A stretch of 33,525 bases of DNA from a virus (Duplodnaviria; Heunggongvirae; Uroviricota; Caudoviricetes), in the IMG/VR virus record IMGVR_UViG_2703718822_000009; one strand, written 5' to 3'. The translations under genes and the position numbers were made by a program. Position 1 is the first letter of the stretch. Each line of letters begins with the position of its first letter. The notes under the pieces were generated by a model, which saw only the letters and a list, made by a program, of their open reading frames with translations, was not told the origin of the DNA and made no database searches. This document shows, one piece after another, positions 13,273-31,440 of the stretch.

Positions 13273-13283
13273 GGATACGCAAC

Positions 13284-14312: not shown

Positions 14313-14329
14313 GCACAGAGGGCGGCGCA

Positions 14330-15028
14330 ATGACACCCTGCCAGCGACACCGGGCGAAAATCCGCACACAGGAGGCACTCGAACGCCGGGAAGCGCTGAC
14401 GGCCTCCCCGGTCAGCTTCCACCTGTTACGCGCGGAGCTTGATCGCGATGTGGCACGGCTGCGCAGTCTTCCTGTCCGCGAAGAGCGGCTGGCGTTCAAG
14501 CGCGACATTCTCCTGCCGCGCTGGCTGCCCGTCGCGGAGCGCTATATCGCTGACGGAAAGCGCCACGCCTGCCCGGTACTGGTGTACTGCATCATCTGGC
14601 TGTTCGACACGGGCGACCTGAGTCGCGCCCTTGACTGGGCAGACATTGCCATCAGTGAAGGCCAGGCCACGCCGGACAACTTCCGCAGCACCCTGCCCGC
14701 CTTCGTGGCCGACACGGTGTTGCAGTGGGCCACCGACAACAGCGAGGCCGGACACAGCATAGAGCCGTATTTTTCGCGCACCTTCAGGAACGTCACCACC
14801 ACGTGGCGGCTGCATGAGGAAATCCGCGCGAAGTGGTTCAGATTTGCCGGGCTGTATCTTCTGCGCGACGAGGCAGGCAAACCGAGAGCCACCGCGATTA
14901 ATGATACTGCCGTACTGGAAAAGGCAGACGCATACCTGGCACAGGCGGCAGCACTGAGCCGTACCGCTGGCGTAAAAAGTATCAGGGCGCGCATCAGGGC
15001 ACGCATCAGCGCCCTTAATGCAGCGTAA
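14330..15028 (+). CDS. Terminase small/endonuclease subunit, P2 gpM-like
   Basis: 232-aa ORF following the capsid gene in the conserved O-N-M-L order. Confidence 0.8.
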   Translation: MTPCQRHRAKIRTQEALERREALTASPVSFHLLRAELDRDVARLRSLPVREERLAFKRDILLPRWLPVAERYIADGKRHACPVLVYCIIWLFDTGDLSRALDWADIAISEGQATPDNFRSTLPAFVADTVLQWATDNSEAGHSIEPYFSRTFRNVTTTWRLHEEIRAKWFRFAGLYLLRDEAGKPRATAINDTAVLEKADAYLAQAAALSRTAGVKSIRARIRARISALNAA

Positions 15029-15135
15029 ACGACTACCCGCAGGGCCGGGCGGGCGCGGGAGGAGGCATCAGTGACGGAAACTGTATGGCCGTGGAATCCC
15101 GGACAGCCCGCCTTTTTATTCATATGAGGCACGTC

Positions 15136-15609
15136 ATGAGCGAACCGAGCTTCAGCGTCAGCGGTAAACCGCTGAAATCCACACCGCAGACGGTGACAAA
15201 CGGCGAGCCGTTCTGGCCGGACCTTGATCTGGCTGAGCTTCAGGGGTCACGCACGCTTCCGGCTGATTTACCCGACGACACGGCGGCCATGGCGCTGCTT
15301 GCCGCAGTGGCCGAGGTAAACACCACGCTGGCGCCGGTTGTGGCGCACTGGAAGGCGCAGGGGCATGAACGCGCCGCAGACGTACCGGGGGCCAGGCTGG
15401 GCGATGAAACCCAGCTGGTCGCACAGTACAAAAAGGCCGTTTATGCCCGTGCCAAGGCCGATCTTATGGGCGAGTTCGCCACCATTGGTCGCCGTGAAAC
15501 CTATCCGGGGCAGGAAAGCGAGGACACACGCGCCACCTTACTGGCTGAAGCCTCGCTGGTCATGCGTAACATGCTGGGGCACAGACGCGCGGGAGTGCAC
15601 ATTATATGA
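15136..15609 (+). CDS. Head completion protein, P2 gpL-like
   Basis: ORF 15085..15609 trimmed to the ATG at 15136 with GAGG RBS. Confidence 0.75.
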   Translation: MSEPSFSVSGKPLKSTPQTVTNGEPFWPDLDLAELQGSRTLPADLPDDTAAMALLAAVAEVNTTLAPVVAHWKAQGHERAADVPGARLGDETQLVAQYKKAVYARAKADLMGEFATIGRRETYPGQESEDTRATLLAEASLVMRNMLGHRRAGVHII

Positions 15610-16079
15610 ACCAGCTGGAAAGCCTGACCGCCTTCATTACCGAAAATCTGCCGCCTGACGCCATGCAGTTCTTCATGAGCAGTCAGGAAGACGCGCAGCT
15701 TATCCGCAGTCAGAAGGCGCTGGGTAACGACCAGATCCGCATGGGCGTGATGACGTACACCGGCGTGATTGCATGGGATAACTTCCCGTTCCGCAAATAC
15801 TCACCGGGGCTGGTTTACGCGCTGGTCATGGCCTGGCTGGAAGAGCACGCGGACCCGCTGAGGGAGGAATTCCGCCCGGAGGATGTGAACGTCGACCCGC
15901 AGTTTAACGACGAGGACTCGTGCCTTCTCGATATCACGGTGGGACTGGCTGACCCGCTGATCATCCGGGTGCAGGAAGAGGGTCCCGTTCCGTACAGGGG
16001 GAAACGCTGGACACTGGTTAACCCTGAAATCTGGACGGCGGAAACCATGGATCTGTTTGTCAGCAGGAGCCGCGAATGA
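15606..16079 (+). CDS. Tail completion protein, P2 gpR-like
   Basis: ATGA-coupled to gpL. The segment ALVMAWLEEHADPL...DVNVDPQFNDEDSCLLDI resembles P2 gpR as recalled. Confidence 0.6.
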   Translation: MNQLESLTAFITENLPPDAMQFFMSSQEDAQLIRSQKALGNDQIRMGVMTYTGVIAWDNFPFRKYSPGLVYALVMAWLEEHADPLREEFRPEDVNVDPQFNDEDSCLLDITVGLADPLIIRVQEEGPVPYRGKRWTLVNPEIWTAETMDLFVSRSRE

Positions 16080-16786
16080 TAAGCGGCCAGCTGAACCCGC
16101 AGCAGCTGGCAGAAGCGCAGGCGATGCTTCAGTCGCTGGATCTGCCACCAAAAAAACGCCGTCGCCTGTTATGGCGTATTGCCCGGCACGGCATTATCGC
16201 CGCTGCCAGACGCCATCAGCGCGATCAGGCCGCACCGGACGGTACAGCATGGGCACCCAGGAAACGCGGTAAGGGGAAAATGTTCAGAAAGCTGCCGCGT
16301 CTTCTGGCGGTCCGTGAGATGCCCGGACAGGATGCCGTAAAGGTTTATTTCCGTAACGGCAATCACACCAGTGGCAGGAGCCGCATCAGTGCCGGTGCCG
16401 TGGGCTGGGTTCACCACAACGGCGCAGAAATCCGGGTCAGTGCTGACAGCTTCAGCGGTCAGGACCAGAGCGGACAGACCGCCACCCGCCGACAGGCAAA
16501 ACGACTGCGGGAGCTGGGCTTTAAGGTACGTCAGAAGGGGCGCTGGCGGAAAGCATCCATGAAATACCTGTTAACGCTTTCGCGGGCGCAGGCCGGGTTG
16601 CTGATCACCGTTATGGAAGATCAGATTATCGCCGGACCACGTCAGCAGAAGGCCCGGACATGGACCATTACCCTTCCGTCGCGCGTCTTTCTGGGGGTAA
16701 CAAACGAAGAATTTTCACACATCCTGGCACGCCAGATGAACGCAATGGGCTACGGCCTGGACGTTGACGCACAGGATATCAGATAA
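16076..16786 (+). CDS. Virion morphogenesis / tail completion protein, gpS-like
   Basis: ATGA-coupled to the R-like gene; basic, Arg/Lys-rich 236-aa protein. Confidence 0.5.
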   Translation: MISGQLNPQQLAEAQAMLQSLDLPPKKRRRLLWRIARHGIIAAARRHQRDQAAPDGTAWAPRKRGKGKMFRKLPRLLAVREMPGQDAVKVYFRNGNHTSGRSRISAGAVGWVHHNGAEIRVSADSFSGQDQSGQTATRRQAKRLRELGFKVRQKGRWRKASMKYLLTLSRAQAGLLITVMEDQIIAGPRQQKARTWTITLPSRVFLGVTNEEFSHILARQMNAMGYGLDVDAQDIR

Positions 16787-16797
16787 GGAGTCACACC

Positions 16798-17943
16798 GTG
16801 AGCTGGCCGAATGTAACCGTAAGCCATCAGAACCGTTTCAACGGTGCCACCCGTGAAGTGGAGCGCACGCTGCTTTTTGTGGGCTATGGCAAAAAGAACA
16901 CAGGTAACACCCTTTCCGTCTCCCCTGAGACCGACCTGGACGACGTGCTGGGACCGGATGAAAGCCTGCTTAAATCCACGCTTACCGCCGCAATCGCCAA
17001 CGGTGGCCAGAACTGGTTTGCCTATGTTCACGTTCTGTCTGAACCCAAACCCCCGGCACCGGAGGGCGGCGACGCTAACGCCGCATGGGTGGACGCGGTG
17101 AAAAAAGCGCAGACCATTGCTTCTGCCGAGGGCGTGGTGATTGCCATTGACATCACGGCCAAAGATGCCGTTAACCGCGCCACCGAAACCCGCGCCCTGC
17201 TTCAGTCCGCTTATGGCCGTTTTGTCTGGTTCATGCTGTGCGTGGCCGGACCGGGCAAGGATGAGGCATGGGCGGCATACGTCACCCGCATCAGTGCCAT
17301 ACAGGACGGTGTGGCAGCACCTGGCGTGATGGTGGTTCCCCGCTTATGGGGAAATGAGCCCGGCGTACTGGCGGGCCGTCTCTGTAATCCTTCCGTCACC
17401 GTTGCGGACAGTCCGGCACGTGTGGCAACCGGTGCCCTGGTGGCGATGGGTAACGATGAGATCCCGCAGGACGGCAAGAAACAGCCCCTTGAGCTGGCCA
17501 CGCTGCGCTCGCTGGAAGGCAAACGCTTCAGCGTGCCCATGTGGTATCACGATTTCGACGGGCTCTACTGGTCAGACGGACGCACCCTTGATGTGGAGGG
17601 GGGAGATTACCAGGTCATCGAAAACGTGCGCGTGGTGGATAAAGTCTCCCGCCGTGTACGTCTGCGCGCCATTGCCCGCCTTGCGGATCGCGCACTCAAC
17701 AGCACACCGGGCAGCATTGCCGCCAGCCAGACATATTTCAGCCGCACGCTGCGTGAAATGGCGCTCGCCACGGAGATTAACGGCGTACCGTTCCCCGGCG
17801 AGGTTAAACCGCCACAGGACGGGGATATCACCATCGTCTGGACCAGCAGTACACACGTGCAGATTTACATTGTGGTACGCCCCTACGAGAGCGCAAAAGC
17901 CATTGGCGTAAGTATTGAACTCGACACAGCACTGGAGATCTGA
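16798..17943 (+). CDS. Putative tail sheath-like protein
   Basis: GTG start with TAAGGAG RBS; 381 aa, followed by a ~150-aa ORF; size and order mimic sheath/tube. No clear similarity to P2 FI. Confidence 0.45.
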   Translation: MSWPNVTVSHQNRFNGATREVERTLLFVGYGKKNTGNTLSVSPETDLDDVLGPDESLLKSTLTAAIANGGQNWFAYVHVLSEPKPPAPEGGDANAAWVDAVKKAQTIASAEGVVIAIDITAKDAVNRATETRALLQSAYGRFVWFMLCVAGPGKDEAWAAYVTRISAIQDGVAAPGVMVVPRLWGNEPGVLAGRLCNPSVTVADSPARVATGALVAMGNDEIPQDGKKQPLELATLRSLEGKRFSVPMWYHDFDGLYWSDGRTLDVEGGDYQVIENVRVVDKVSRRVRLRAIARLADRALNSTPGSIAASQTYFSRTLREMALATEINGVPFPGEVKPPQDGDITIVWTSSTHVQIYIVVRPYESAKAIGVSIELDTALEI

Positions 17944-17944
17944 C

Positions 17945-18406
17945 ATGGCCGGAAATGAACGTATCAGCGGCGGCGCGTTTGATATCAACTACGACGGGAT
18001 CATGATCCACGTGGAAAGCGCCACCGTCACCATCACCGACAACAGCGCCGTGGCACAGACGCGCGGCGTGCCGAACGGCTACACCCGTGGTTCCGTTTCT
18101 GCCGATGTGGAGGTGGAAGTCGACGCGCAGAACTTTAAAAAGTTTGGTGCCGTGGCCCGCTCTGCGGGGTCGTGGCGTGCCATTCCTGAAAAGGATTTTC
18201 TCTTTTATGCCAACAACGGCAGCGAGGAGGAAAAAATCGAGGTATTCGGCTGCGTCCCCATGTTGTCGGACGTGGTGAACATCAGCGCAGGTGAAGCCGG
18301 AAAGACCACGAAAAAAATCAAGTTCATGGTCACAAGCCCGGACTTTATCAGCATTGACGGCGTGCCCTACCTGTCAGCCCGTGACACCCGCGATCTGAAG
18401 GGGTGA
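17945..18406 (+). CDS. Putative tail tube-like protein
   Basis: ORF 17915..18406 trimmed to the ATG at 17945, which overlaps the upstream stop; about 153 aa. Confidence 0.4.
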   Translation: MAGNERISGGAFDINYDGIMIHVESATVTITDNSAVAQTRGVPNGYTRGSVSADVEVEVDAQNFKKFGAVARSAGSWRAIPEKDFLFYANNGSEEEKIEVFGCVPMLSDVVNISAGEAGKTTKKIKFMVTSPDFISIDGVPYLSARDTRDLKG

Positions 18407-18410
18407 TGCC

Positions 18411-18716
18411 ATGCCGGACGGTCAGACTTCACTCCTGGCAAAACTGATTATCATCGGTGCTGCCATCGGGCTGGGGCGTCTCATGGTGAGCCGCGATCGC
18501 ATCACAGCCCGTCTGCTTATCGGGCGAATGATTATGGGCTCTGCCGTGGCACCGGTTGCCGCCATTCCGCTGTTTAAATTTCCGGACATGCCGGAACTGG
18601 TTGTGGTCGGTCTGGCGTGCGCGCTGGGCATTATGGGCAGCGCCTTTATTGAAGAATGCTTTTGCCGTCTGGCAGACCGCTACCTGAAGCAGAAGGAACG
18701 CAGAAATGACCCATAA
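18411..18716 (+). CDS. Putative holin (three predicted TM segments)
   Basis: 101-aa protein with three hydrophobic stretches and a charged C-terminus (KQKERRNDP); heads a cluster containing the endolysin and spanins. Confidence 0.55.
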   Translation: MPDGQTSLLAKLIIIGAAIGLGRLMVSRDRITARLLIGRMIMGSAVAPVAAIPLFKFPDMPELVVVGLACALGIMGSAFIEECFCRLADRYLKQKERRNDP

Positions 18717-19458
18717 GCCTTACATTTCTCCTTTCCTGAGCCTGTATCACGCGCAGGCGCATGACGTTCTGCGAATGCTGCCGGAAAACAGTGTGGACGC
18801 GCTCATCACAGACCCGCCATACAGTTCAGGTGCCACACACAAGGCGGGGCGGACATGCCAGGGCAGCCACGCCAAATACATCAACGATGAAGATCTTCAC
18901 CGCTTTGAAGGCTTCGAAGGCGAGAACATGGACGCCCGTTCATGGGAATACTGGACGCATCTGTGGATGACACAGGCATGGCGCACGGTACGACCCGGTG
19001 GTTACGCCCTGGTCTTCACCGACTGGCGGCAGTTGCCCGCGCTGACGGACGCATTCCAGGCCGCCGGTTTTACCTGGCGGGGGATCGTGGCATGGAACAA
19101 GGGACGGGCCTCAAGAACACCGCATACCGGTTATTTTCGTCACCAGTGCGAATATGTGGTCTGGGGCAGTAAAGGCGCGCTGGGCAAATCCCCTTCCGGG
19201 CCGTTCGACGGCTGCATCACGCACCACACACGCCCACAGGAGAAACAGCACCCGACAGGTAAACCGGAATCGTTGATGGATGAGCTTGTGCGCGTGTGTG
19301 AACCCGGAGGGCTGATCCTCGATCCGTTTATGGGGTCCGGCACCACGGGCGTGGCCGCCCTTCGCCGGGGCTGCCGTTTTACGGGTATTGAACTGAACGC
19401 CCACTATTTCAGCGTGGCACAGGCGCGTCTTACGGGGACGGAACAGAGGAGTGACTGA
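18706..19458 (+). CDS. DNA methyltransferase (amino-MTase, N6-adenine or N4-cytosine), orphan
   Basis: Motif IV ITDPPY precedes motif I LDPFMGSGTTGVAA (beta-class order). Start overlaps the holin 3' end; stop overlaps the endolysin start. No adjacent restriction endonuclease. Confidence 0.85.
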   Translation: MTHKPYISPFLSLYHAQAHDVLRMLPENSVDALITDPPYSSGATHKAGRTCQGSHAKYINDEDLHRFEGFEGENMDARSWEYWTHLWMTQAWRTVRPGGYALVFTDWRQLPALTDAFQAAGFTWRGIVAWNKGRASRTPHTGYFRHQCEYVVWGSKGALGKSPSGPFDGCITHHTRPQEKQHPTGKPESLMDELVRVCEPGGLILDPFMGSGTTGVAALRRGCRFTGIELNAHYFSVAQARLTGTEQRSD

Positions 19459-19796
19459 TGAAACTGAGCGAAAAACAACAACTGTTTGCCGTCATGATTG
19501 CCGATCTCATCCACTGGGCACAGGAGCACGGCTATCGCCTGACCTTCGGCGAGGCATACCGCACGCCGGAGCAGGCCGCACTGAATGCGAAAAGCGGAAA
19601 AGGCATTCGCAACAGCCTTCACACGCTGCGCCTCGCGGTGGACTTCAACCTGTTCATTAACGGCGAATACCAGGCCGATACCGACGCCTACAGGCCGCTG
19701 GGGGAATACTGGGAATCCATCGGCGGCACATGGGGCGGACGCTTCAGCCGGGCAGACGGCAATCATTTCAGCCTTGAGCACAACGGGGTGAAATGA
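19458..19796 (+). CDS. Endolysin, peptidase M15-like
   Basis: 112 aa with SLHTLRLAVDF and GNHFSLEH, matching the zinc-binding H...D...H pattern of M15 peptidases; GAGGAG RBS. Confidence 0.78.
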   Translation: MKLSEKQQLFAVMIADLIHWAQEHGYRLTFGEAYRTPEQAALNAKSGKGIRNSLHTLRLAVDFNLFINGEYQADTDAYRPLGEYWESIGGTWGGRFSRADGNHFSLEHNGVK

Positions 19797-20179
19797 TGAA
19801 ACAGGTGGCGGGCTGCCTGGTGATCCTCTTTGCCGCCATGTGGGCGGGCTGGCTGGCCCATGACTGGCATGACGCCAGGGTGGCGCTTGCCGAACAGGAA
19901 GCCATGGAAGCCACGCGACGTGCGGTAACAGAAGCCGGGCAGCAGTCCGCCCGCATACTGGAAAAACGGCTGGAGGCGTTAAAGGGCAATGAAATTCACA
20001 CTGAACGCGTTATTCACACGGAAACCGTCCGCCCGGTATTCCGCAATGTGTGCGCTACTGATGATTACGTCCGGCTGTTCAACGCCCGTGCTGAAGCCGC
20101 TGAGCGTACCCTGGCAGGAAAACCAGCTGACGGAATGCCCGAAGACACTGCCGAGACTGGCAGGCCCGACGGGCGCTGA
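19793..20179 (+). CDS. i-spanin (Rz-like)
   Basis: N-terminal TM segment (VAGCLVILFAAMWAGWLA) then a charged helical periplasmic region; ATGA-coupled to the endolysin. Confidence 0.6.
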   Translation: MMKQVAGCLVILFAAMWAGWLAHDWHDARVALAEQEAMEATRRAVTEAGQQSARILEKRLEALKGNEIHTERVIHTETVRPVFRNVCATDDYVRLFNARAEAAERTLAGKPADGMPEDTAETGRPDGR

Positions 20180-20282
20180 TTTTGATGCGGCACTGCGAAC
20201 CCTCACGAGCCGCTACACCGAATGCGCCGCCAGGCATAACAGCCTGGTGGAAACCATACGAAACACGGAGAAACTGCAATGA
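19989..20282 (+). CDS. o-spanin (Rz1-like lipoprotein), overlapping the i-spanin
   Basis: Alternative frame overlapping the 3' half of the i-spanin; lipobox-like LLMITSG|C; start at 19989 or 20046 unresolved. Confidence 0.55.
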   Translation: MKFTLNALFTRKPSARYSAMCALLMITSGCSTPVLKPLSVPWQENQLTECPKTLPRLAGPTGADFDAALRTLTSRYTECAARHNSLVETIRNTEKLQ

Positions 20283-20554
20283 CCACGAAGAACACCGGCA
20301 CCATCATCCTGTCCGTTGCGGGCGTAACCCTGAGCTTTGAACCGAACAAAACGGCATTTAACAACCTCATCAACGAAATCACGATGACCAACAAGGTGGC
20401 GCCGATGAGCACCTATCTTAACCGCATCGTGACACCTGCCAGCCGCGACGCACTGGCTGACCTGATTGCGCGTTATCCGGGCTGTGAGATGCAGATCGTC
20501 GAGAAGATTAACGAGGTTTACTCCCCGAAACTGGAGATTGAGTTAAAAAACTGA
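20279..20554 (+). CDS. Tail assembly chaperone, short form (gpE / lambda G analogue)
   Basis: 91-aa ORF immediately upstream of the tape measure gene; ends ...ELKN with the heptamer A AAA AAC just before the stop. Confidence 0.6.
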   Translation: MTTKNTGTIILSVAGVTLSFEPNKTAFNNLINEITMTNKVAPMSTYLNRIVTPASRDALADLIARYPGCEMQIVEKINEVYSPKLEIELKN

Positions 20555-20742
20555 CCGCGCGGGTCGAAAGCATCCGCCGCAATCCCCTTGAGCAGTATCT
20601 GGCATTGCGGCGTCACTACCTCCCCGGAGAGCCGGACGACGAAGAGAGCATCGCCCGTGCCATCTGGCTGGATGAATATTTTGCCCGTACCCGCGCCAAC
20701 AAGACCGCTGAAGGTATAGCGATCGCATTTAACGGAAGGTGA
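20279..20742 (+). CDS. Tail assembly chaperone, frameshift-extended long form (gpE'/GT analogue)
   Basis: Zero frame to 20551, then -1 frame 20551..20742 (LTARVESIRRNPLEQYLALRRHYLPGEPDDEESIARAIWLDEYFARTRANKTAEGIAIAFNGR). Confidence 0.5.
20545..20551 (+). promoter_or_regulatory. Putative -1 programmed frameshift slippery heptamer (A AAA AAC)
   Basis: X XXY YYZ heptamer three nt before the chaperone stop. The -1 frame is open for 64 codons to a stop at 20740-20742, directly abutting the tape measure ATG at 20744. Confidence 0.55.
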
Positions 20743-20743
20743 C

Positions 20744-22930
20744 ATGGCCAGCCAGCTGGATTTCATTATCAATCTGACAGACCAGCTTACCCGCCCGCTG
20801 CGGCAGGTTCAGGAATCCGTGACGGGATTCGCCGAACGCTCGCAAGGCGCGTTCGCGCGTATCGGTGTGGGTGTGGCCGGACTGTGGGGCGTGGCCGAAG
20901 GTATCCGCGCCGCGATGGATCCGGCGTGGGAGATGCAGAAGGCGCTGGGCGAGCTTGAGGCCAAAGGCGTCGGGGCGCAGGCGCTGACCGCCCTCACCAC
21001 GCAGGCCATGAAACTGGGGACCGCATTCGGTCAGTCTTCCACGGAGATCATCCGTTCCGCATGGCATATTCGCGGCGCACTGGACGGACTGAGCGACGGG
21101 GATTTACCCCGTGTGACGGCAGCAACCAGCACCCTGGCCGTGGCTGCCCGCGTCAGCAGCGAAGAGGCGAGCGGCTACCTTGCCGCCATGGGTGCCCGTT
21201 TCCGCAGTGAGTTTTCTGCCATGGGTGCCGTGGGGTTTGCTGAAGATCTGGCAGGTAAAACCGCGTGGATGGTTCAGCAGTTCGGCGTGGAAATGAGCAC
21301 CATGCAGGAGCTTATTGAGGGCACCAAAAACGCGGGCGCGGATTTTGGCGTCAGCATGGCAGAGCAGTTTGCCATACTGGGCACCCTGTCACGGACCATG
21401 GGCACCGAGGCATCGGGCATCTATGAGGAATTCCTGCGCAGTGCCCCCGCTGCCGCACAAAAAATGGGGATGAGTTTTGTCGATGCCACCGGGAAGATTT
21501 TACCCATGGGTGACATCCTCGACCGTCTGCAGGCGAGGTTCGGCAGGAACATTGAGGGTAACGTGGCGGCACAACAGGCGCTGGATGACGCCTTCGGCAG
21601 TGGCGCGGACGTGATTAAAAAACTCTGGGGACAGCAGGAAATGCTTAACCGGAGCATATCAGCGCTGGGGCGTAATGACGGCATGAAGCGTGCCACGGAA
21701 ATGGCGGAAGCCATGACCGACCCGTGGGACCGCCTTGTGGCCTCCTTCTACAACATCCGGGCCGCCATCGGTAACGCCCTCTACCCCATTCTCGCACCAC
21801 TGGCTGGCCGTTTTGCCGATATCGGCGCGACGTTCGTGCGCTGGCTGAACATGTTCCCGAACATCGCCCGCTGGCTGGGTTACATCACGCTGACCATGCT
21901 GGCGCTGGGCGCAGCCGGTGCGGTCACGAACATCGTGCTGGGTGTGTTCAGCTTCATCATGGAAGGCCATAAGGCCATCATAAAGGGCGCCAGGGCAGCC
22001 TGGAGTCTGTACACGCTTGCACTCACAAAAGTACGCAGTGCCATCATTGCCACCAGTCTTGCCGCGCGTCTGGCGGGCGTGTCGTTTCTGACCATGAGCG
22101 CCCCGGTCCTCCTGGTTGCCGCCGCCATCGCTGCTCTGGTGGTGGTGGCCATTAAGTTCTGGCAGCCCATCAAAGCCTTTATTCGCGGCTTTATTGATGG
22201 TTTTACCAGCGCACTGGACGCCATGAGCCCGGTGACTGCCGCGTTCGGTGACATTGCCCGGGCGCTGGCCCCGGTATGGCAGGGCATAAAAACACTGTTC
22301 AGTGCCTTCTCCGATCTGTTTGCACCGGTACAGCTGACCACGGGACAGATGAACAGCGTCACCCGTGCCGGGGAAACATGCGGTCGCGTGGTGGCCGCAG
22401 CGGTAAGCATGATATCCCCCGCGCTGGAGGTGGTTATCAGCGTGATCAGAACCCTGATCGACATCTTCGCCATCGTCATCAGAGGGTGGCAGGACGTGGT
22501 GGCTGCATTTGACCCGACCGCCCCGGTCGAATCCTTCCGGAAAATGGCGGGGATCATCGGTAACGTCTTCGGGGACTTATGGAACGTCATTAAAAACTCG
22601 TTTAACCGGACGTGGAACTGGCTTGCGGAAAAGCTGAACAAAATCCCCGGTATCAGTATCGACATGAAGCCCACGGAGCAGGTGAACACCATGACGCGGG
22701 GCGCAACAGGCAGCACCGTACCTCCGCAGATTGCAGAAACCGCCGTCCCGGCACTGGCAGGCAACCGCATCAGCGCAGAGCTGCCACCCGGAGGCATACG
22801 CAACCAGATACGCACGGACACCTCAACCCGTATCGACAACAGCCGGACGTTCGGCAATCTGACAATCAACACGCAGAACCCGATGACGCCGGGGCAACTG
22901 GATGAATGGACGGAGCTTTACGCGGGATGA
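20744..22930 (+). CDS. Tail tape measure protein
   Basis: 728 aa; Ala/Gly-rich helical N-terminal region and hydrophobic central segments; follows the frameshifting chaperone. Confidence 0.85.
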   Translation: MASQLDFIINLTDQLTRPLRQVQESVTGFAERSQGAFARIGVGVAGLWGVAEGIRAAMDPAWEMQKALGELEAKGVGAQALTALTTQAMKLGTAFGQSSTEIIRSAWHIRGALDGLSDGDLPRVTAATSTLAVAARVSSEEASGYLAAMGARFRSEFSAMGAVGFAEDLAGKTAWMVQQFGVEMSTMQELIEGTKNAGADFGVSMAEQFAILGTLSRTMGTEASGIYEEFLRSAPAAAQKMGMSFVDATGKILPMGDILDRLQARFGRNIEGNVAAQQALDDAFGSGADVIKKLWGQQEMLNRSISALGRNDGMKRATEMAEAMTDPWDRLVASFYNIRAAIGNALYPILAPLAGRFADIGATFVRWLNMFPNIARWLGYITLTMLALGAAGAVTNIVLGVFSFIMEGHKAIIKGARAAWSLYTLALTKVRSAIIATSLAARLAGVSFLTMSAPVLLVAAAIAALVVVAIKFWQPIKAFIRGFIDGFTSALDAMSPVTAAFGDIARALAPVWQGIKTLFSAFSDLFAPVQLTTGQMNSVTRAGETCGRVVAAAVSMISPALEVVISVIRTLIDIFAIVIRGWQDVVAAFDPTAPVESFRKMAGIIGNVFGDLWNVIKNSFNRTWNWLAEKLNKIPGISIDMKPTEQVNTMTRGATGSTVPPQIAETAVPALAGNRISAELPPGGIRNQIRTDTSTRIDNSRTFGNLTINTQNPMTPGQLDEWTELYAG

Positions 22931-23277
22931 ACACGCCATCGCTTTACATCGACCTGCTTATCACTGACGGCAGTTTTACGCTGAACAGCGGAAACGAGCC
23001 ACAGCGATGTGATAACCGGGTCAGCATCGGCCAGGACGTGGTGCACAGCATTATCGAAAGCGGGATCGCCGCCCTGCTTATCGGCGAACGCAGCCCGACG
23101 CTGCGCAGCGACATCATTACCCGGCTTATCCTCCTGGTTGAGGATGATGAACGGCTGGTTCCGGGGACGGTGTTCATTAACGAAGAGGCACCGGGCAGGC
23201 TGCATGTGACGGCAGAGACACAGGATTTTGGACGCATAAACACCAGGGTGAACTATGAAAGGGAAACCGGACGTTGA
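22927..23277 (+). CDS. Putative baseplate protein (gpW/gp25-like by size and position)
   Basis: ORF 22906..23277 trimmed to the ATG at 22927, which overlaps the tape measure stop; about 116 aa preceding the J-like gene. Confidence 0.45.
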   Translation: MNTPSLYIDLLITDGSFTLNSGNEPQRCDNRVSIGQDVVHSIIESGIAALLIGERSPTLRSDIITRLILLVEDDERLVPGTVFINEEAPGRLHVTAETQDFGRINTRVNYERETGR

Positions 23278-24439
23278 TTTTAATCAGGTATTCCGTGAAA
23301 GCGGTATGCCGGAAACAGAAGAAGAGATCGCCACCCTCTTTCATGAGGATGTACAGAAAACCGGACTCATCACCAACACCTCGCCCATGAGTCCCTTCTG
23401 GCGGCTCATTCTGACCATTGTCATACGACCCGTTCAGTGGCTGCGTGATGCGCTGGTTGACGTTGTACTGCCCGGTATGTTTGTCGCCACGGCTGACCGG
23501 TCACTTCTTCTGCTTCATGCGCACGACGTCAACATCACCCCAAAACCGGCCAGTAAGGCCAGTGGCGTGATCTGGTTTGCCAAAACCAGGGCAAATGATG
23601 ATGTTCTCATCCCCGAAGGGACCATCGTCCAGACCGCCAGAATTAACGGCGTGATATACAGCATGGCCGTCACGGAGGAAACGCTTATCAGCAGCGGTAA
23701 AAGCGGCGCATCCGTTCCCGTGGAAGCCACCACCGAAGGCAGCGGGCACAACCTCGCGCCGGGGTACTTCCGTATCCTTCCCGTTGCCATTCCCGGCATT
23801 GCATCCGTGGTGAACCGGGAAGACTGGCTGACCGTACCGGGTGCCGATGAGGAAAGCGACGACGAACTGCGCGACAGAATACGCAACCAGTTTAACCTCG
23901 TGAGCAGTTACCACACGGATGCCGTCTACCGGGGACTTATCGCCAGCGTGGCAGGCCTGAGCATCGACCGGATCTACTTTCAGCACGACGCCCCGAGAGG
24001 ACCGGGAACGGCCAACGCCTACCTGTTACTGGACAGCGGCGAGGCCTCTGCCCCTTTCATTGAAGCAGTCAACCGCTACATCAACGAAGAGGGGCACCAC
24101 GGACACGGGGATGATTTGCAGTGTTTCGCCATGCCGGAGACGCGTCACCGTCTGGACGTCACCGCATACATCAGAAGTTCCACCACCCTGCCACCGGACG
24201 GCGCGGAAGGGCTGAAACAGGATATCGGCGACCTGATACGCTGCGCTTTCCGGGAGAACGCCCGCTTTAATGTGAAAAAAGTCTGGCCCTATTCGCGCTT
24301 TTCGTTTTCCACGCTGGGCAAGGAAATTCATCAGACCTTCCCGGTGGTGGCTTCGGTTCAGTTTTCACTGGAAGACATCATCAGCGATCTGGCCGTGCCA
24401 CGGCTCGAATCCCTGACAGTGGAGGTGGTCATTGAATGA
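23255..24439 (+). CDS. Baseplate protein, gpJ-like
   Basis: 394 aa, positioned between the W-like and I-like genes. Confidence 0.6.
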   Translation: MKGKPDVDFNQVFRESGMPETEEEIATLFHEDVQKTGLITNTSPMSPFWRLILTIVIRPVQWLRDALVDVVLPGMFVATADRSLLLLHAHDVNITPKPASKASGVIWFAKTRANDDVLIPEGTIVQTARINGVIYSMAVTEETLISSGKSGASVPVEATTEGSGHNLAPGYFRILPVAIPGIASVVNREDWLTVPGADEESDDELRDRIRNQFNLVSSYHTDAVYRGLIASVAGLSIDRIYFQHDAPRGPGTANAYLLLDSGEASAPFIEAVNRYINEEGHHGHGDDLQCFAMPETRHRLDVTAYIRSSTTLPPDGAEGLKQDIGDLIRCAFRENARFNVKKVWPYSRFSFSTLGKEIHQTFPVVASVQFSLEDIISDLAVPRLESLTVEVVIE

Positions 24440-24980
24440 CTTTTTGCAGCGGCTTCGCTCGCTGAAACTGCCCTCCTGGATGGACAGGGGGGAACCCGAC
24501 AAACTGCTGCGGGCCGCGCAGGCGTTCTGGTCCCGCGTATGGGAATGGATCACCTGGCCCGTGCGCCAGTTTGACCCCATGACATGTGCAGAGCCCGTAC
24601 TTGATTTACTGGCATGGGAGCGGGACATCACCCGTTTTAAAGGTGAACCCACATCACTGTACCGCCGCCGTATCGCCCACGCCTTTGTCAATGCACAGGA
24701 CGCCGGAGAGGTGGCAGGATTTATTGCCATTTTTGAACGGCTGGGCATTGGACATGTGGAGTTGCAGGAGCGCAAGCCCGGCGTGGACTGGGATGTGATC
24801 CTGGTGCAGGTGACAGACAGCCAGATAGCCGACAACAGCGATCTTCTTCTGGAGATCATCCGCAAATATGGCAGGACATGCCGCCGTTACCGTTTTGAGG
24901 TGGAAACCCTTAACCCCTTCATCATCCATTATGGCGCATACGAAGGGGAGTATATCTGCTGGACGGCCAGGGCAGAGTGA
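24432..24980 (+). CDS. Baseplate/tail protein, P2 gpI-like
   Basis: TTG start after GGAGGTGG. MTCAEPVLDLLAWERDI...RRRIAHAF...GFIAIFERLGIGHVELQERKPG resembles P2 gpI as recalled. Confidence 0.65.
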   Translation: MNDFLQRLRSLKLPSWMDRGEPDKLLRAAQAFWSRVWEWITWPVRQFDPMTCAEPVLDLLAWERDITRFKGEPTSLYRRRIAHAFVNAQDAGEVAGFIAIFERLGIGHVELQERKPGVDWDVILVQVTDSQIADNSDLLLEIIRKYGRTCRRYRFEVETLNPFIIHYGAYEGEYICWTARAE

Positions 24981-25002
24981 ATGACTGAAGGAGTATGACT
25001 TT

Positions 25003-27063
25003 ATGGCGAAATCTGTAATTACCAGCGCCTTTATCCGGCTCAAGGCACAGCAGGCGGCGGAAGGCACCCCCGTTGTGCTGGATGAGTTTGTTTTTGCAAA
25101 CGTCCCGGACCTCAACCCGGAAACACCGGTATCCCCCGACGAAACCCTGCCACCTGAAGATCAGATTGTTCACCGCCAGGCCGTTGGCAAAACCGGCGTG
25201 GTGAATGAGAATGCCGTGGTTTATTCGGTCACCCTGGGGGCAGAGCTGGGTGATTTTGAATTTAACTGGGTGGGACTGGTCAGCAAAGCAACCAGCACGC
25301 TGGCCATGATTGTTCACGCCCCCACACAGAAAAAAATCAGAACCCACAACGGTAACGAAGGTAATGTGCTGGTCCGTTCCATGCTCATGGAGTACAGCGG
25401 TGCGAAGGAAGCCACAGGTATCACCACCCCGGCGCAGACCTGGCAGATAGACTTCACGGCACGCCTGGCGGCCATGGACGAGCGCCAGCGCCGGGAAAAC
25501 ATCGATATTTACGGTAACGCTGCATTCTTTGGGGACGGCTGGCTGGTTAAAAAAGGCGAAAGATGGTCACTCTGCAAAGGGACCGGTTACGTGGAGGGAT
25601 TACGCGCAGAGCTGACCGAAGACATACCGCTGACCACGCCAGACTTCCCGTCCCGTATCTGGCTGACAGTATGGTGGACCGGTACGCTCACCAGTGAATG
25701 GACGGTGGAGCACGATATTATCATGGCCGACCCCGCCGCCACGGAAGAGATCCTGCTGGAAGCACACAGGAAGGAGGCCGCCCGGCAATATTTTTTTGCC
25801 CTTGCTGACATTGATGAAGACGGCAACGTGACTGACCTGCGCCCCAGAGGAACGCCGGAAGAACGCCGCTGGCTGGACGCTCTGAAAAAACACGAGAAAT
25901 CACGCAACCACCCGGACGCAACGCTGAAAGAAAAGGGCTTCACACAGTTAAGCAGCGCCACCACCAGTACATCAGAGACACAGGCAGCCACGCCAAAGGC
26001 TATAAAGATCGCCATGGACAACGCCGATGGTCGGCTTGCGAAAAACCGCAATGGTGAGGACATCCCCAACAAGGAGCTGTTCCTGATCAACGTGGGCGCA
26101 CCACGCGTTTATGCAAAAGACGGGTACGTGGGTGAAGCAGGGCAACGCTGGACAACAGAACAATTCGTGGAATGGCTGAATGAACGTGGCGCCTTCAGAC
26201 CAGGACTCTGGATATTCAAAGCCAATATTTCACTTTCCCGGCACAGCGTGCTCACTGATACGGGCTATGGTGATATCTGCCTTGGAGGCTGCCTTATCGA
26301 AGTATCAGGCGACATCAACGGGGGGATCATCAGGATCACGACAGGTCTCGAAAGCCCAAACCCTGCCGACATGTACCTCCGCACACAGTTCACCGGGGTT
26401 GTTTTAAATAAAGGGAAAAGCACCATCTGGTACCGCACTTACACGGACAAAAACAAACCCACACCACAGGACATCGGCGCACTGCCTGCAAGTGAGTTGT
26501 TACCCGCAGGCGTTCCCCTGCCGTGGCCGTCAGACACCCCACCTGCCGGTTACGCCATCATGGTGGGGCAGACATTCGATAAAGCACGATATCCCCTGCT
26601 GGCAAAAGCCTATCCGGATGGTCGTATCCCGGATATGCGTGGCTGGACAATCAAGGGAAAACCTGCCAGCGGTCGTGCGGTATTGTCACAGGAGCAGGAC
26701 GGCATCAAATCGCACACCCACGGAGGGAGCGTCTCAAATACTGACCTTGGCACAAAAACGACCTCATCCTTCAATTACGGCACAAAAACAACAAACAGCG
26801 CGGGGCCGTTCAGCGCAACAATATCATTAAGAACCGCCACCGCGTCACCGGAAGGCGGCGGTGACTGGACCGCATACGGGCCGGGCTCCGGGGCGAACCT
26901 GATCGCCAGAGTTTCGGAACACACACATTCGGTAAGCATTGGCGAACACATCCACACGCTCGCACTGGGTCAACATGGCCACGGCCTGACCATTAACCCC
27001 ACCGGTAATGCGGAAAACACCGTCAAAAACATCGCATTTAACTACATCGTGAGGCTTGCATAA
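25003..27063 (+). CDS. Tail fibre protein, P2 gpH-like
   Basis: [39 protein letters not shown] matches the conserved gpH segment; C-terminus ...[11 protein letters not shown] is the typical enterobacterial fibre terminus. Confidence 0.85.
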
Positions 27064-27659
27064 TGACCTTTAAAATGAGCGAACACCCACAGACAATTAA
27101 AATCTACAACCTGTCAGCCGGAACAAATGAATTTATCGGCGAAGGCGATGCCTGGATCCCTCCGCATACCGGACTGCCTGCGCACTCAACGGACATTGCC
27201 CCGCCTGACATTCCTGAAGGACACGTGGCTATCTTTGATGAGGATGAAAACGCCTGGCACCTCATGGAAGATCACCGGGGTAAAGCCGTCTGGCGTCTGG
27301 AGTCGGGGAGCGCCTTACTGATTACTGAGCCGGGCCCGTTACCGGAAAACGTGACAGAAATAAAACCGGACGGGGAGTTCTGCCGGTGGGATGGTTCATC
27401 ATGGGTTAAGGATGAAGCAGCAGAACAGGCTTACCGGGTGAGCGAGGCGGAGAACAAAAAACGGGAATTAATACAGGAAGCAACAAATACAATAAACATC
27501 CTCCAGGATGCCGTGGATTTAAATATGGCGACCGACGATGAAAGCGCCCTGCTTCCCCTGTGGAAAAAATACCGGGTATTACTGAACCGGACAGACACGG
27601 GCAACGCGCCGGATATTGTCTGGCCTGAATCCCCTTCGCCGGATCATCACGCAGGCTGA
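27063..27659 (+). CDS. Tail fibre assembly chaperone (gpG/Tfa-like)
   Basis: 198 aa directly after the fibre gene with a 1-nt overlap; N-terminus typical of Tfa proteins (pattern-level). Confidence 0.75.
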
Positions 27660-27670
27660 CCGGAGGCACC

Positions 27671-28396
27671 ATGACGTGGACAAGAAAAACAATCAGCGTC
27701 AGCGCTGACATGCCCCCGCTGAGCTGTTCCGTCATCCCCGTCACACCGTGGACTTACGGGCTGGGACGATATGAAGAATCGGGGGTATATTTAAGCCCTC
27801 CGAACGCCATAAACTGGCTGGCCGGGAAAATGGCCGGAAGCCGTGCATCCGGCGACGTGACCATTATCATGATTGCCGAAAACACCCACGATCTTTTTAT
27901 ACAGTCAATGGCGGCACTGACCACCGTTCTGCCCGTGCCGGTATTCACGCAGGCACAGCGCATGGCACAGGCTGCCGCCAGTCTGAGCACTGACAAAATG
28001 CAAATCCCGATCACCACCGACACCCTGCCCGCACCTGTGCATCTTTCCGTTTCCACAATACGCAGCGCAGTCAGTGCCGCCCGTGCAGCACAGGCCAGGC
28101 AGCTGGCAGCACAACGCCCGGATGCCGCAGGGCTTCGCCGCCAGATAAGCCGCTTTATCAGCAGACGGGCTGGCGCACTTGCCGGACTGGAAGAGGGGAT
28201 CAGAACACTGGCAGAACAGAAGGCGCAGGCCTGGGTATTTCAGTACCGGGGGTATCACCGCGCCGCAGCGGCGGCCATGGTGAAGGATATCCCGGCACCG
28301 ACCGCCGTACATACTGTGGCCGCACTCCTGGCGGCAGACTCATTAACCGAACTGGGGAAAATGATCCATGAGCCAGACCGCACTGCTCGCCCTTGA
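27671..28396 (+). CDS. Hypothetical tail-module protein
   Basis: GGAGG RBS; Ala-rich 241-aa protein between the Tfa gene and the hub/spike gene. Confidence 0.45.
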   Translation: MTWTRKTISVSADMPPLSCSVIPVTPWTYGLGRYEESGVYLSPPNAINWLAGKMAGSRASGDVTIIMIAENTHDLFIQSMAALTTVLPVPVFTQAQRMAQAAASLSTDKMQIPITTDTLPAPVHLSVSTIRSAVSAARAAQARQLAAQRPDAAGLRRQISRFISRRAGALAGLEEGIRTLAEQKAQAWVFQYRGYHRAAAAAMVKDIPAPTAVHTVAALLAADSLTELGKMIHEPDRTARP

Positions 28397-28910
28397 TGGT
28401 GAGGGTATTTTCATGCAGAACATGGTGATTTCGCCCTCGATGCAGTTCCAGGAAAAGGACCAGTCCGGTCAGACATCGAGCACCGCGAACGCCGAGCAGG
28501 GCATCAAGGCCAAAGAGCTTCGCGTAACCGGGATGATCACCTTTGACAATGAGCGGGCCCTTCAGCGCATTTTCCAGCTGGCCTCTGCCACCACCGGGGA
28601 CGGTGCCCTGAAAGTTTACCGTATCGCAAACGCCACCGCTGCCGCCATTAACTTTCGTGAAGGGACATTTTCCGGGCAGATAGACGCACAGCAGCAGACC
28701 GACCGCCTCGCCTGGCAGGTCAGCTTCACATTACGCGAAAGACGAAGCGTACCGGAAAAACGCCAGGCACGCGCCACCCCCGGCAGCAGCCGTAAACAGA
28801 CGCCGCAGACGCCCGGCGCAAAAGGCAAAACCGTGGCCAACGAAACACCGGAGAAAATGACCTGGTTCGAAGAAAAGGTCCTCAAACCCGTCAATGATGC
28901 GCTGGAGTAA
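28368..28910 (+). CDS. Hypothetical tail-module protein (start uncertain)
   Basis: ORF 28368..28910; an alternative ATG at 28413 has a GAGGG RBS and avoids overlap with the upstream gene. Confidence 0.45.
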   Translation: MSQTALLALDGEGIFMQNMVISPSMQFQEKDQSGQTSSTANAEQGIKAKELRVTGMITFDNERALQRIFQLASATTGDGALKVYRIANATAAAINFREGTFSGQIDAQQQTDRLAWQVSFTLRERRSVPEKRQARATPGSSRKQTPQTPGAKGKTVANETPEKMTWFEEKVLKPVNDALE

Positions 28911-28912
28911 CC

Positions 28913-30586
28913 ATGAACCCCACTAAACGTCTGTTACTGGGTAACGACACCATTCAGCTGGTCAGTTGTTCCGTCATGCTTGAGCTGAACGCGTGCGGAC
29001 GCGGATTTATCACGGCCAGAACAGAGCAGAACTACACCGGGCGCCCCGTTCGTCTCGATATCGGATACGGAAACGACCTGGTGCGCTGGTTTACCGGATA
29101 CGTTGAACGCAGCCAGCCCGCTGAAAACGGCTCGGTGCGGCTTCTGATTCGTGAAATGGCGGGGATCCTTGATCACCCCTTCCCCTGTTCATTTCAGCAC
29201 CCGACAATGCGCACGGTCACACAGTGGCTGAGTGAGACCAGCGGGCTGGAAATCATCCTGCCGGACAACGCGGCTTACACTGACAGACCCGTTCCGCATT
29301 TCACGCACAGCGGCACGGGCTACGAACTGCTGGCCAGTCTGGGGCGTATTTTCTCCGTACCGGACTACATCTGGCATCCGTTACCGGACGGCGGCATTAT
29401 GGCCGCTGCCGCCGCGCAGGGGATGTTTTCCGGTCGCCCCGTCACCATCCCGCACGAGTTCAGCCAGGCATCAACGGGCGGACACAGTATGACCCTCCCG
29501 ATGATTCAGACGCTGCGACCGGGTGTGGAGGTGAACGGTCAGCGCCTGACGATGGTCATGCTGGAAGATGACAACATGACCATCACGTGGACACCACGCA
29601 ATAAAGCCACCGGCGCCCCCCTCCAGAAGTCCCCTTTCCGTCGCCAGGCTGAAAAGGCCTTCCCTGAACTGGCATCAGGGCTTCACCTGCCCAAACTGGC
29701 ACGTGTTGAGGCGCCGACCGAAGCCGTCAGCGCGGGCAATATTGCCGACCCGTTCAGACCCCGCTACGCGGTGAATCTCCAGCTGCTTGACGAGAACGGC
29801 AACCCGGCAGCGGATACGCCCGTTTATAACGCCGTTCCCCTCCCCGTTCCTATGGCGGGCAGTGAGTCCGGCATGTTCCAGTTCCCGCCACCCGGAACCC
29901 TGGTGGAAGTGGGATTTGTGGAAGGCCGGGCGGATAAGCCCTTCATCCGCCAGATAATGGCAGAGGGCCACAATCTGCCCGACGTGAAGCCGGGCGAGCA
30001 GTTGCAGCAACAGCGCGACGGCGTATCGCAGCGCGTGACGGTCGCCGGAGACTGGGAGCGCCAGACAGACCAGCGGATACAGGAGACATCACGCGAGCGC
30101 GTGGTGAGCGCAGACGAGGAGACGCGGAGCCTGACCAGCCGGGAGACCACCATACAGGCAACCGACACAACCACCGTCCTGGGCGTATCCACGCTTCAGG
30201 CTGGCGCAGTCACCCATATCACTGAAGAGAACTACAGCATCAGCACGGGCGGGCACATGATGGTGGTTGCCGGTACCTGTGAGCGCGACGTGGAAGGCGA
30301 CACACTGGACACCGTGGGCGGCAGCCTTACCGAAAAGATTAAGGGCGTCCGTCACAGTATTGCGCTGGCGCAGAAGCTGGTTGGCGATACGGTGAAGCTG
30401 GGAAACGAGGGCATTAATGTACTGACCATGCTGACGGACCTTGCCGATGTGGTGGAAGAGCTGGCCGATATTACGGCATCACATACCCACCCCAAAACGG
30501 GCACGTCTCCGCAGGCCGCACAGTTCAGCCAGGTCGCTCAGGAGTGCCGCCAGCTTAAAAATAAATATTCACCAATAATCGAATAA
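28913..30586 (+). CDS. Putative baseplate hub/central spike protein (gpD/gpV- or VgrG-like)
   Basis: 557 aa; internal GMFQFPPPGTLVEVGFVEGRADKPFI resembles the OB-fold spike motif of gp5/gpV/VgrG proteins (pattern-level). Last gene of the late operon. Confidence 0.55.
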   Translation: MNPTKRLLLGNDTIQLVSCSVMLELNACGRGFITARTEQNYTGRPVRLDIGYGNDLVRWFTGYVERSQPAENGSVRLLIREMAGILDHPFPCSFQHPTMRTVTQWLSETSGLEIILPDNAAYTDRPVPHFTHSGTGYELLASLGRIFSVPDYIWHPLPDGGIMAAAAAQGMFSGRPVTIPHEFSQASTGGHSMTLPMIQTLRPGVEVNGQRLTMVMLEDDNMTITWTPRNKATGAPLQKSPFRRQAEKAFPELASGLHLPKLARVEAPTEAVSAGNIADPFRPRYAVNLQLLDENGNPAADTPVYNAVPLPVPMAGSESGMFQFPPPGTLVEVGFVEGRADKPFIRQIMAEGHNLPDVKPGEQLQQQRDGVSQRVTVAGDWERQTDQRIQETSRERVVSADEETRSLTSRETTIQATDTTTVLGVSTLQAGAVTHITEENYSISTGGHMMVVAGTCERDVEGDTLDTVGGSLTEKIKGVRHSIALAQKLVGDTVKLGNEGINVLTMLTDLADVVEELADITASHTHPKTGTSPQAAQFSQVAQECRQLKNKYSPIIE

Positions 30587-30600
30587 TCATTCACTTTAAC

Positions 30601-30627
30601 AGGCCGCGCAATGTGGCCTTTTTTATT
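30601..30627 (+). terminator. Putative intrinsic terminator ending the late operon
   Basis: Stem aggccgc / gtggcct (one G-U pair) with a 5-nt loop, followed by a T-run. Confidence 0.5.
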
Positions 30628-30699
30628 CCCCCGACAATAAAAAATATTCATCACCGGACATCACCCACCACGAAAAAACCGTCCGCAGCAGAAAAAAAG

Positions 30700-31280: not shown

Positions 31281-31440
31281 GTAAATTACGCGCGGGTGCC
31301 TTTCGGCTGACGGCTGGAAGGATTACCTGAAGGCCGGATGAGGAAAGGCCCCGAGTCAAACATTTGTTTAACCCGAGGCCCTAACCCATCTACCTCGCAA
31401 GTGGAAGGTTAGCGCCTCCCTGTAAAAGGAGTCAAGCGCT

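Follow-up and report, generated by a model that had tools for sequence, protein, structure and literature searches.

Late Gene Array of an HP1-Group Peduoviridae Prophage of Escherichia coli and a Methyltransferase Gene Within Its Lysis Cassette

The late region of the virus record IMGVR_UViG_2703718822_000009, a stretch of 33,525 nt referred to below as the window, is very probably the normal array of virion and lysis genes of a temperate Peduoviridae myovirus from the HP1 group, resident as a prophage in Escherichia coli, with a DNA methyltransferase gene as its one lineage-specific event. An earlier note, made from the letters of this stretch, had seen here an unusual gene order and the mark of a modular recombinant lineage, in which P2-type head and fibre genes were combined with a re-ordered tail module. 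The order that it read, from L, R, and S through sheath, tube, lysis genes, chaperone, and tape measure to the hub/spike gene, holds in every position, with all open reading frames (ORFs) at the coordinates given and in matching families. The difference of this order from that of P2 is, however, an old feature of the whole group, not a rearrangement within this lineage.

Collinearity with Phages of the HP1 Group

The ORFs of the window were surveyed and their products scanned against Pfam and PHROG; all the window proteins were then compared by tblastn with each of four reference genomes, those of the phages SI7, ESSI-2, HP1, and P2. The late genes are fully collinear with those of SI7, ESSI-2, and HP1, and the identity is even across the head and tail genes, at 42-86%, 35-78%, and 27-59%, respectively, with no step at the L/R boundary against any of the three. 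Because the identity to the relatives is uniform across head and tail and shows no such step, the lineage is not a recent recombinant. For the head proteins the identity to P2 amounts to 26-41%, against 32-52% for HP1 and 67-78% for SI7 (68%, 34%, and 29% for the major capsid protein in SI7, HP1, and P2, respectively), so that the description of the head and fibre genes as specially P2-type had to be abandoned. In P2 no tblastn match was obtained for the R, sheath, tube, chaperone, DUF2590, J, I, and orf33-35 proteins. The earlier note had made its proposal depend on the order not being the norm of any described genus; it is the norm for Hpunavirus HP1, Irrigatiovirus SI7, and Seongnamvirus ESSI-2, and for the HP1 group with its 12 genera. 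The genes concerned are listed below with their coordinates, strand, assignment, and, in parentheses, the supporting matches (E, expectation value).

9203-10276, minus strand: portal, Q-like (tblastn identity 78% to SI7, 52% to HP1, 33% to P2)
10252-12078, minus strand: large terminase, P-like (tblastn identity 77% to SI7, 47% to HP1, 41% to P2)
12223-15028, plus strand: scaffold (O-like), major capsid (N-like), and small terminase (M-like) (RefSeq copy, tblastn)
15085-15609, plus strand: head completion/head-tail adaptor L (PF05926, E 2e-34; phrog_71)
15606-16079, plus strand: tail terminator, R-like, equivalent and collinear to HP1 orf21 (PF06891, E 7e-18; phrog_65)
16076-16786, plus strand: tail completion, S-like, equivalent to HP1 orf22 (PF05069, E 7e-7; phrog_26)
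16798-17943, plus strand: tail sheath, 381 aa, equivalent to HP1 orf23 (DUF2586; phrog_907 'tail sheath')
17945-18406, plus strand: tail tube, 153 aa, HP1 type (Phage_HP1_Orf24, PF10772, E 2e-51)
18411-18716, plus strand: holin (PF04550, E 1e-19; phrog_175)
18706-19458, plus strand: predicted orphan N6-adenine DNA methyltransferase, 250 aa (PF01555, E 1e-27)
19458-19796, plus strand: endolysin, M15 family peptidase (PF13539, E 4e-10; 86% identical to the SI7 endolysin)
19793-20179, plus strand: Rz-like spanin (spanin pair 19793-20282: phrog_1152, E 4e-31, and phrog_2425)
within 19989-20282, plus strand: Rz1/LysC-like lipoprotein ORF overlapping Rz (weak match to LysC, PF23793, E 1e-3)
20279-20554, plus strand: tail assembly chaperone, 91 aa (PF10963, E 9e-31)
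20744-22930, plus strand: tape measure (PF10145; phrog_28)
22906-23277, plus strand: DUF2590 baseplate protein, equivalent to HP1 orf28, in the position of P2 W (PF10761, E 8e-41)
23255-24439, plus strand: baseplate wedge, J-like (PF04865, E 4e-30)
24432-24980, plus strand: baseplate wedge, I-like (PF09684, E 1e-7)
25003-27063, plus strand: tail fibre, 686 aa, continuous ORF (with the assembly gene: PF12571, PF03406, PF07484, PF02413)
27063-27659, plus strand: tail fibre assembly protein (Pfam scan, jointly with the fibre)
27671-28396, plus strand: 241-aa protein, equivalent to HP1 orf33 (with the 180-aa protein: phrog_1677, phrog_1398; HP1 collinearity)
28368-28910, plus strand: HP1_ORF34 'baseplate complex protein', 180 aa (PF25759, E 1e-53; collinear with HP1 orf34)
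28913-30586, plus strand: predicted hub/spike, 557 aa, VgrG-like, equivalent to HP1 orf35 (phrog_2258 'baseplate protein', E 6e-242; weak PF04717)
30601-30619, plus strand: intrinsic-terminator-like hairpin with T-run, 15 nt past the last late gene (consensus match only)

HP1 of Haemophilus (Hpunavirus) has the same late order: orf20 (adaptor), orf21, orf22, orf23 (sheath), orf24 (tube), hol, lys, orf25 (spanin), then orf26 (chaperone), orf27 (tape measure), orf28 (DUF2590), orf29 (J), orf30 (I), orf31 (fibre), and finally orf32 (fibre assembly), orf33, orf34, and orf35. It shares the Pfam families of the window, several of which are named after it, although the amino acid identity amounts to only 27-59% and the nucleotide similarity to ~4%. 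Its holin and endolysin belong to other families, those of the window giving no BLAST match to HP1 hol or lys, and its lysis cassette is devoid of a methyltransferase, the dam-like orf13 of HP1 being located in the early region. The closest described phage is SI7 of Salmonella (Irrigatiovirus), with its relatives SW3 and SW5, all of whose late genes, those for the holin, the M15 endolysin, and the spanins among them, are collinear with the window at 42-86% amino acid identity; in SI7, however, the endolysin gene directly follows the holin gene with no methyltransferase, and the early regions are unlike. ESSI-2 of Cronobacter (Seongnamvirus) is more distant than SI7, with the same late order at 35-78% identity and a lysis cassette likewise lacking the methyltransferase.

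P2 (Peduovirus), a member of the same family, has a homologous capsid block, Q-P and O-N-M-L, laid out alike; its R, S, J, I, H, and G proteins fall into the same Pfam families as those of the window, and both phages have Ogr, Cox, Int, a Rep of the A type, a -1 frameshift in the tail chaperone gene, and two spanin genes that overlap. As the earlier note had correctly stated, the remaining layout of P2 is different: its annotation has the lysis genes between L and R (L-X-lysis-R-S), followed by V-W-J-I-H-G and, after G, by FI-FII-E-T-U-D, and the tail operons are parted by cargo genes. The place of orf33-35 in the phage of the window is taken in P2 by U, D, and V as separate proteins. The name 'W-like' given to the gene behind the tape measure gene reflects position only, since its product, a DUF2590 protein, shows no detectable similarity to W of P2.

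The arrangement extends well beyond the reference phages. A homologue of the sheath gene was found in 76 phage records, among them HP1, HP2, K139, Kappa, phiO18P, F108, phi3, ESSI-2, and SI7, covering phages of Haemophilus, Vibrio, Aeromonas, Pasteurella, Pseudomonas, Salmonella, Cronobacter, and Yersinia. For the tube gene, 268 relatives were confirmed in bacterial genomes that each represent a species, and 80 tube-gene loci from such genomes of other bacteria were fetched for comparison of gene order. The core order R-sheath-tube-chaperone-tape measure-DUF2590-J is kept in essentially all of the 80 loci, with L, S, and the lysis genes in place wherever tblastn could detect them; in the few truncated or divergent loci one or two matches are missing. 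The lysis cassette is likewise situated between tube and chaperone in these loci, the exceptions being nine Xenorhabdus clusters devoid of lysis genes, described below, and a few truncated loci.

By its tail, capsid genes, and gene order the phage of the window can be considered a member of the HP1 group. Its DUF2586 sheath, HP1_Orf24 tube, DUF2590, HP1_ORF34, and orf35-type hub proteins match HP1 better than P2, the portal-terminase genes diverge from the scaffold-capsid-small terminase-adaptor genes, and the region is collinear with orf20-orf35 with the lysis cassette between tube and chaperone. It has neither the P2 gene order nor sheath and tube proteins of the Phage_sheath_1/Phage_tube type that characterize the Peduovirus/P2 subgroup. 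The P2 phages were divided into 'P2-like' and 'HP1-like' viruses by Lavigne et al. in 2009 (PMC2771037); in the HP1-like viruses cos adjoins attP and does not lie downstream of the portal gene (PMC2771037). By that layout cos of the present element would be expected within 30620-31400, the stretch that separates the terminator from the Hok/Gef genes. An analysis of 2023 comprised 12 Peduoviridae genera, including Irrigatiovirus and Seongnamvirus, in the HP1 group, defined by the tail module in its Table 2, attributed this module to ancient exchange or divergence, and found remote homology of HP1-type and P2 tail proteins by HHpred (PMC10612066). The modular recombination proposed in the earlier note thus stands only at this ancient, group-wide, and already published level; the prophage itself, with its uniform identity to relatives, is not a recent recombinant.

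A recent mosaic, in which a P2-type phage contributed the head and fibre genes and another myovirus, for example a Mu-like one, the sheath, tube, tape measure, and hub genes, would accord with the presence of P2 homologues of the head proteins and the lack of BLAST matches in P2 for the sheath, tube, chaperone, DUF2590, J, I, and orf33-35 proteins, and the order sheath-tube-chaperone-tape measure does resemble that of generic myoviruses and of Mu. The collinearity with the HP1-group phages effectively refutes this explanation, which is improbable in the extreme. Nor does anything in the window point to Mu: in place of replication by a transposase, the regulators Mor/C, and a portal and terminase of the Mu type, the window has a tyrosine integrase, Cox, Ogr, an A-type replication endonuclease, and portal and terminase genes of the P2 type. 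The only sign of recent mosaicism other than the methyltransferase is found in the fibre genes, where a stretch made up of the fibre gene's 3' end and the assembly gene's 5' part (26966-27462) shows 73-78% nucleotide identity to side-tail-fibre/tfa genes of lambdoid E. coli phages and has a lower GC content, 53-55%, as if a host-range cassette had been exchanged.

Sheath, Tube, and Spike Proteins

The labels sheath-like and tube-like, given in the earlier note to the 381-aa and 153-aa proteins, agree with the folds found, and judged from their structure models the two proteins are the tail sheath and the tail tube. The model of the 381-aa protein has the contractile sheath fold. The model of the 153-aa protein has a pLDDT of 85, and the list of its Foldseek matches is headed, at probability 1.0, by tail tube proteins only, those of phage 812, monocin, diffocin, PVC, AFP, pyocin, and T4 (gp19). 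RefSeq labels the two proteins 'DUF2586 domain-containing protein' and 'phage protein'. The models lend structural support to DUF2586 as a tail sheath family and to Phage_HP1_Orf24 (also DUF2597) as a tail tube family.

The observation that these proteins do not resemble FI and FII of P2 was borne out, no sequence similarity being found by tblastn or hhalign. The pairs aligned by hhalign were sheath with FI, tube with FII, orf35 with D and V, orf34 with U, and DUF2590 with W; shallow profiles (Neff 1.6-2.5) set against single P2 sequences gave probabilities below 1%, a comparison of low power that leaves room for remote homology. Searches of the Protein Data Bank (PDB) by phmmer with the sheath, tube, and 180-aa proteins yielded nothing useful among the PDB sequences, and a profile search of the PDB with the 241-aa orf33-like protein gave no matches.

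The 557-aa protein is predicted to be a VgrG-like central hub/spike with an OB-fold and a beta-helix. As a single sequence it gave only matches with E > 0.2 in the PDB; a profile of four homologues matches the beta-helix of T4 gp5 (E 3e-7) and VgrG proteins over residues ~311-497.

The Methyltransferase Gene in the Lysis Cassette

The region named lysis cassette in the earlier note does contain a holin, an endolysin, and spanins, with the correction that the 250-aa ORF at 18706-19458 codes for a DNA methyltransferase (PF01555) and is no lysis gene. In its translation the motif ITDPPY precedes FMGSGTT, which is the beta-class order; with DPPY ahead of the FxGxG motif and a full-length domain, the product has the features of beta-class N6-adenine methyltransferases of PF01555. 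It also matches MTase_II of PADLOC (E 7e-62), and its relatives in the PDB are of the CcrM and DpnA types (E ~1e-21). Judged by sequence, the ORF is an orphan beta-class N6-adenine DNA methyltransferase gene, the activity of its product being predicted.

The gene is a recent, lineage-specific insertion exactly at the holin/endolysin junction. It is absent by tblastn from SI7, HP1, ESSI-2, and P2, as well as from all 80 genomic loci, and it is carried by 12 out of 12 E. coli copies of the prophage. The distance between the tube and chaperone genes is 1,873 bp in the window versus 1,114-1,175 bp in most enterobacterial relatives with the same lysis genes, and in the closest relative (locus L087, with a sheath protein 88% identical) the holin gene directly abuts the M15 endolysin gene, which constitutes the empty site. 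The fit to the neighbours is close: at its ATG the methyltransferase gene shares 11 nt with the holin gene, and at its TGA it shares 1 nt with the ATG of the endolysin gene.

The family of this methyltransferase counts 5,200 homologues at E <= 1e-40, and those sampled for their context occupy a variety of sites. The nearest, 72-73% identical, are found in other prophages together with a Com regulator gene and Hok-like genes beside att, and others precede the gene for a sheath of the P2 type or for a terminase of the Mu type. Of the phage enzymes with the same PF01555 domain, the one of Escherichia phage Chuche, which is Com-linked, is 73% and Bpm of Bordetella phage BPP-1 51% identical to that of the window; the Com-linked enzymes are encoded in a cargo site by att, in contrast to the methyltransferase of the window, which is without Com and inside the lysis cassette. 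In three Salmonella enterica loci (L089-L091, 3807-5286) the gene for a 250-aa methyltransferase, 60% identical, is flanked by that for a Phage_holin_2_1 holin on one side and that for a Phage_lysozyme endolysin on the other; these prophages are Mu-like (GemA and Mor upstream), their lysis genes are unrelated to those of the window, and the methyltransferase gene overlaps each neighbour by 4 nt.

From its sequence and contexts, we read the methyltransferase gene as a promiscuous, putatively anti-restriction moron in a late, translationally coupled position. A specific tie of the gene to lysis cassettes was considered as well and is weakened by the homologues at non-lysis sites. It is doubtful, on present indications, that the gene is a mobile one which repeatedly settles at the holin/endolysin junction of unrelated phages (HP1-type and Salmonella Mu-like), overlapping both neighbours; if this were true, the slot might be favoured for tightly timed, coupled expression just before packaging and lysis, or the gene might modulate the timing of lysis. 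A role in lysis timing, as a spacer, a holin-endolysin translational coupler, or a regulator and not only as an anti-restriction moron, appears still less likely. Such a role is suggested by the Salmonella Mu-like prophages, with their homologue of the same length in the same slot, overlapping by 4 nt on either side next to an unrelated holin and endolysin, and by the overlaps with both neighbours in the window. The other sampled contexts of the homologues, however, are non-lysis ones (with Com by att, before a Mu-type terminase, before a P2-type sheath), relatives lyse with the holin gene directly abutting that of the endolysin, and the protein consists of a complete methyltransferase domain and nothing else.

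Expression of the Late Genes and Proposed Working

From O to the gene for the 557-aa protein all the genes are on one strand, most of them overlapping and every gap being at most 56 nt, and the hairpin at 30601-30619 is the only convincing terminator-like hairpin on the plus strand. Because of this close spacing on one strand and the hairpin after the last gene, the late array would most likely be expressed as one ~18.4-kb transcript, divergent from the portal-terminase operon; in P2, three rightward late operons are interrupted by cargo genes. The transcript would be switched on by the Ogr/Delta-type zinc-finger activator of the prophage. Overlapping TTCGG...CCGAA dyads at 12103-12146 were found only in the intergenic region between the portal-terminase and scaffold genes, where P2 has an Ogr-binding site; the dyad is a weak candidate for a lineage-specific late-activator site and is not statistically distinctive.

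The chaperone gene ends with A AAA AAC TGA, including the canonical -1 slippery heptamer A AAA AAC at 20545-20551, and the -1 frame is open up to a stop codon at 20740-20742, two bases before the ATG of the tape measure gene. A -1 frameshift is thus predicted to extend the chaperone to a 154-aa fusion, the same device as in E/E+E' of P2. The extension is annotated separately in RefSeq, as 'DUF6890 family protein'.

From the products of the array a capsid like that of P2 and a contractile tail of the HP1 type would be assembled, the parts of the tail being the DUF2586 sheath, the Orf24-type tube, the chaperone with its -1 frameshift extension, the tape measure, the wedge of DUF2590, J, and I, the fibres, and the orf33-35 hub with the VgrG-like spike. 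The genes for the holin, the M15 endolysin, and the spanin pair are placed between those for the tube and the chaperone, and the same holds for all relatives that have a lysis cassette at this site. With its start and stop codons overlapping those of its neighbours, the methyltransferase gene would be expressed late and in a translationally coupled manner, and its product would methylate progeny DNA before packaging and so confer resistance to restriction.

Several points weigh against this account. The consensus of the P2 Ogr site, TGT-N12-ACA, is absent from the P/O intergenic region, and its matches in the window number 7 versus 7.0 expected. The model of a single transcript has the spacing of the genes and one terminator-like hairpin as its only basis, and the target sequence and anti-restriction role of the methyltransferase are taken only from family membership. 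Among the tail proteins, the Foldseek E values of the tube are marginal (~1e-3, with TM 0.4-0.55) and the sheath model is of poor quality in its C-terminal third.

State of the Prophage

Upstream of the late genes the window encodes a tyrosine integrase, Cox, an Ogr/Delta zinc-finger protein, and an A-type replication endonuclease. Nearly the whole of the window is taken up by this P2-family prophage. Its late half (22 kb) has counterparts with 97-99.6% identity, as a prophage in the chromosome, in 12 of the 5,426 complete E. coli genomes; a RefSeq-annotated copy, 99.6% identical to the window, was used for the portal, terminase, scaffold, and capsid labels. In E. coli JNEC-KY174 the prophage copy is flanked by dmsA and serS.

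A defective prophage or a tailocin, that is, a domesticated tail-only or a decaying element, is an explanation of very low probability. Tail clusters of the HP1 type without heads and lysis genes appear to exist in Xenorhabdus, and in one E. coli copy RefSeq gives the fibre gene as two partial pseudogenes. The head, tail, lysis, replication, and integration ORFs of the window, however, are all intact and tightly packed, the fibre ORF is continuous over 686 aa, and the near identity of the 12 E. coli copies over 22 kb fits a recently mobile element. The normal late array of a temperate HP1-group phage remains by far the better description.

The Xenorhabdus clusters occur in nine loci (L048, L050, L052, L054, L055, L058, L059, L062, and L064, at ~5300-11000 of each) and comprise sheath, tube, chaperone, tape measure, and baseplate genes; the spacing between tube and chaperone genes is only 130-216 bp, with no holin, endolysin, or spanin gene, and upstream no L or S is detectable. 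The clusters may derive from the HP1-type tail and represent head-less elements resembling tailocins. The split fibre gene belongs to the copy of E. coli JNEC-KY174 (locus L004, 28005-30065), where RefSeq has two partial pseudogene fragments. The 686-aa fibre ORF appeared to be 100% identical to this locus over its full length, in a pooled tblastn run in which the subject was deduced from coordinates, and the pseudogene call is probably an annotation artefact.

Taxonomic Position and Origin

The phage collection holds no close record; by megablast the nearest are the Salmonella phages SI7, SW3, and SW5, with 71% nucleotide identity across 13% of the query. The nucleotide similarity in one-way blastn, an approximate calculation and not one by VIRIDIC, is ~0.41 to SI7 (aligned fraction 0.59), ~0.24 to ESSI-2, and at most 0.04 to HP1 and P2. 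The ICTV guideline for a genus is a nucleotide identity of ~70% or more over the genome length. As the similarity of 0.41 to SI7 falls below this value, the element lies outside Irrigatiovirus and looks like a separate, undescribed genus-level lineage in the HP1 group of Peduoviridae, present as a prophage in E. coli.

The GC content of the prophage is 55-63% at 5000-30600 of the window, and that of the E. coli chromosome is roughly 51%. The sheath relatives nearest to that of the window come from Citrobacter, Enterobacter, Kluyvera, and Salmonella. The high GC content, the rarity in E. coli, and the nearest sheath relatives elsewhere would be consistent with the element having come only recently from a different enterobacterial host.

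Right End of the Window

The stretch 30620-33525 has a GC content of 38-45% compared with 57-60% in the phage. Its content varies among the E. coli copies, and no genome covers at least 80% of the stretch. According to the RefSeq context the cargo includes Hok/Gef-type toxin genes, and one further gene was recognized:

32332-33525, minus strand: 397-aa BRCT-domain protein (weak PADLOC match to the candidate system PDC-S48, E 5e-7)

From the context in JNEC-KY174 this ORF might have been taken for serS, which is ruled out by its GC content of 38% and the BRCT domain; it is a cargo gene. No tRNA gene was found, and no Rfam family was detected at the right end of the window.

Conclusions

The prophage is a rare, high-GC (57-60%), unnamed genus-level lineage in E. 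coli. The insertion of its methyltransferase gene, for which the matching empty site is available, is a clean small example of the acquisition of a moron inside an essential operon. For the family at large, a P2-family prophage in which the sheath and tube genes stand ahead of the lysis cassette should be read as a phage of the HP1 group, not as a mosaic.

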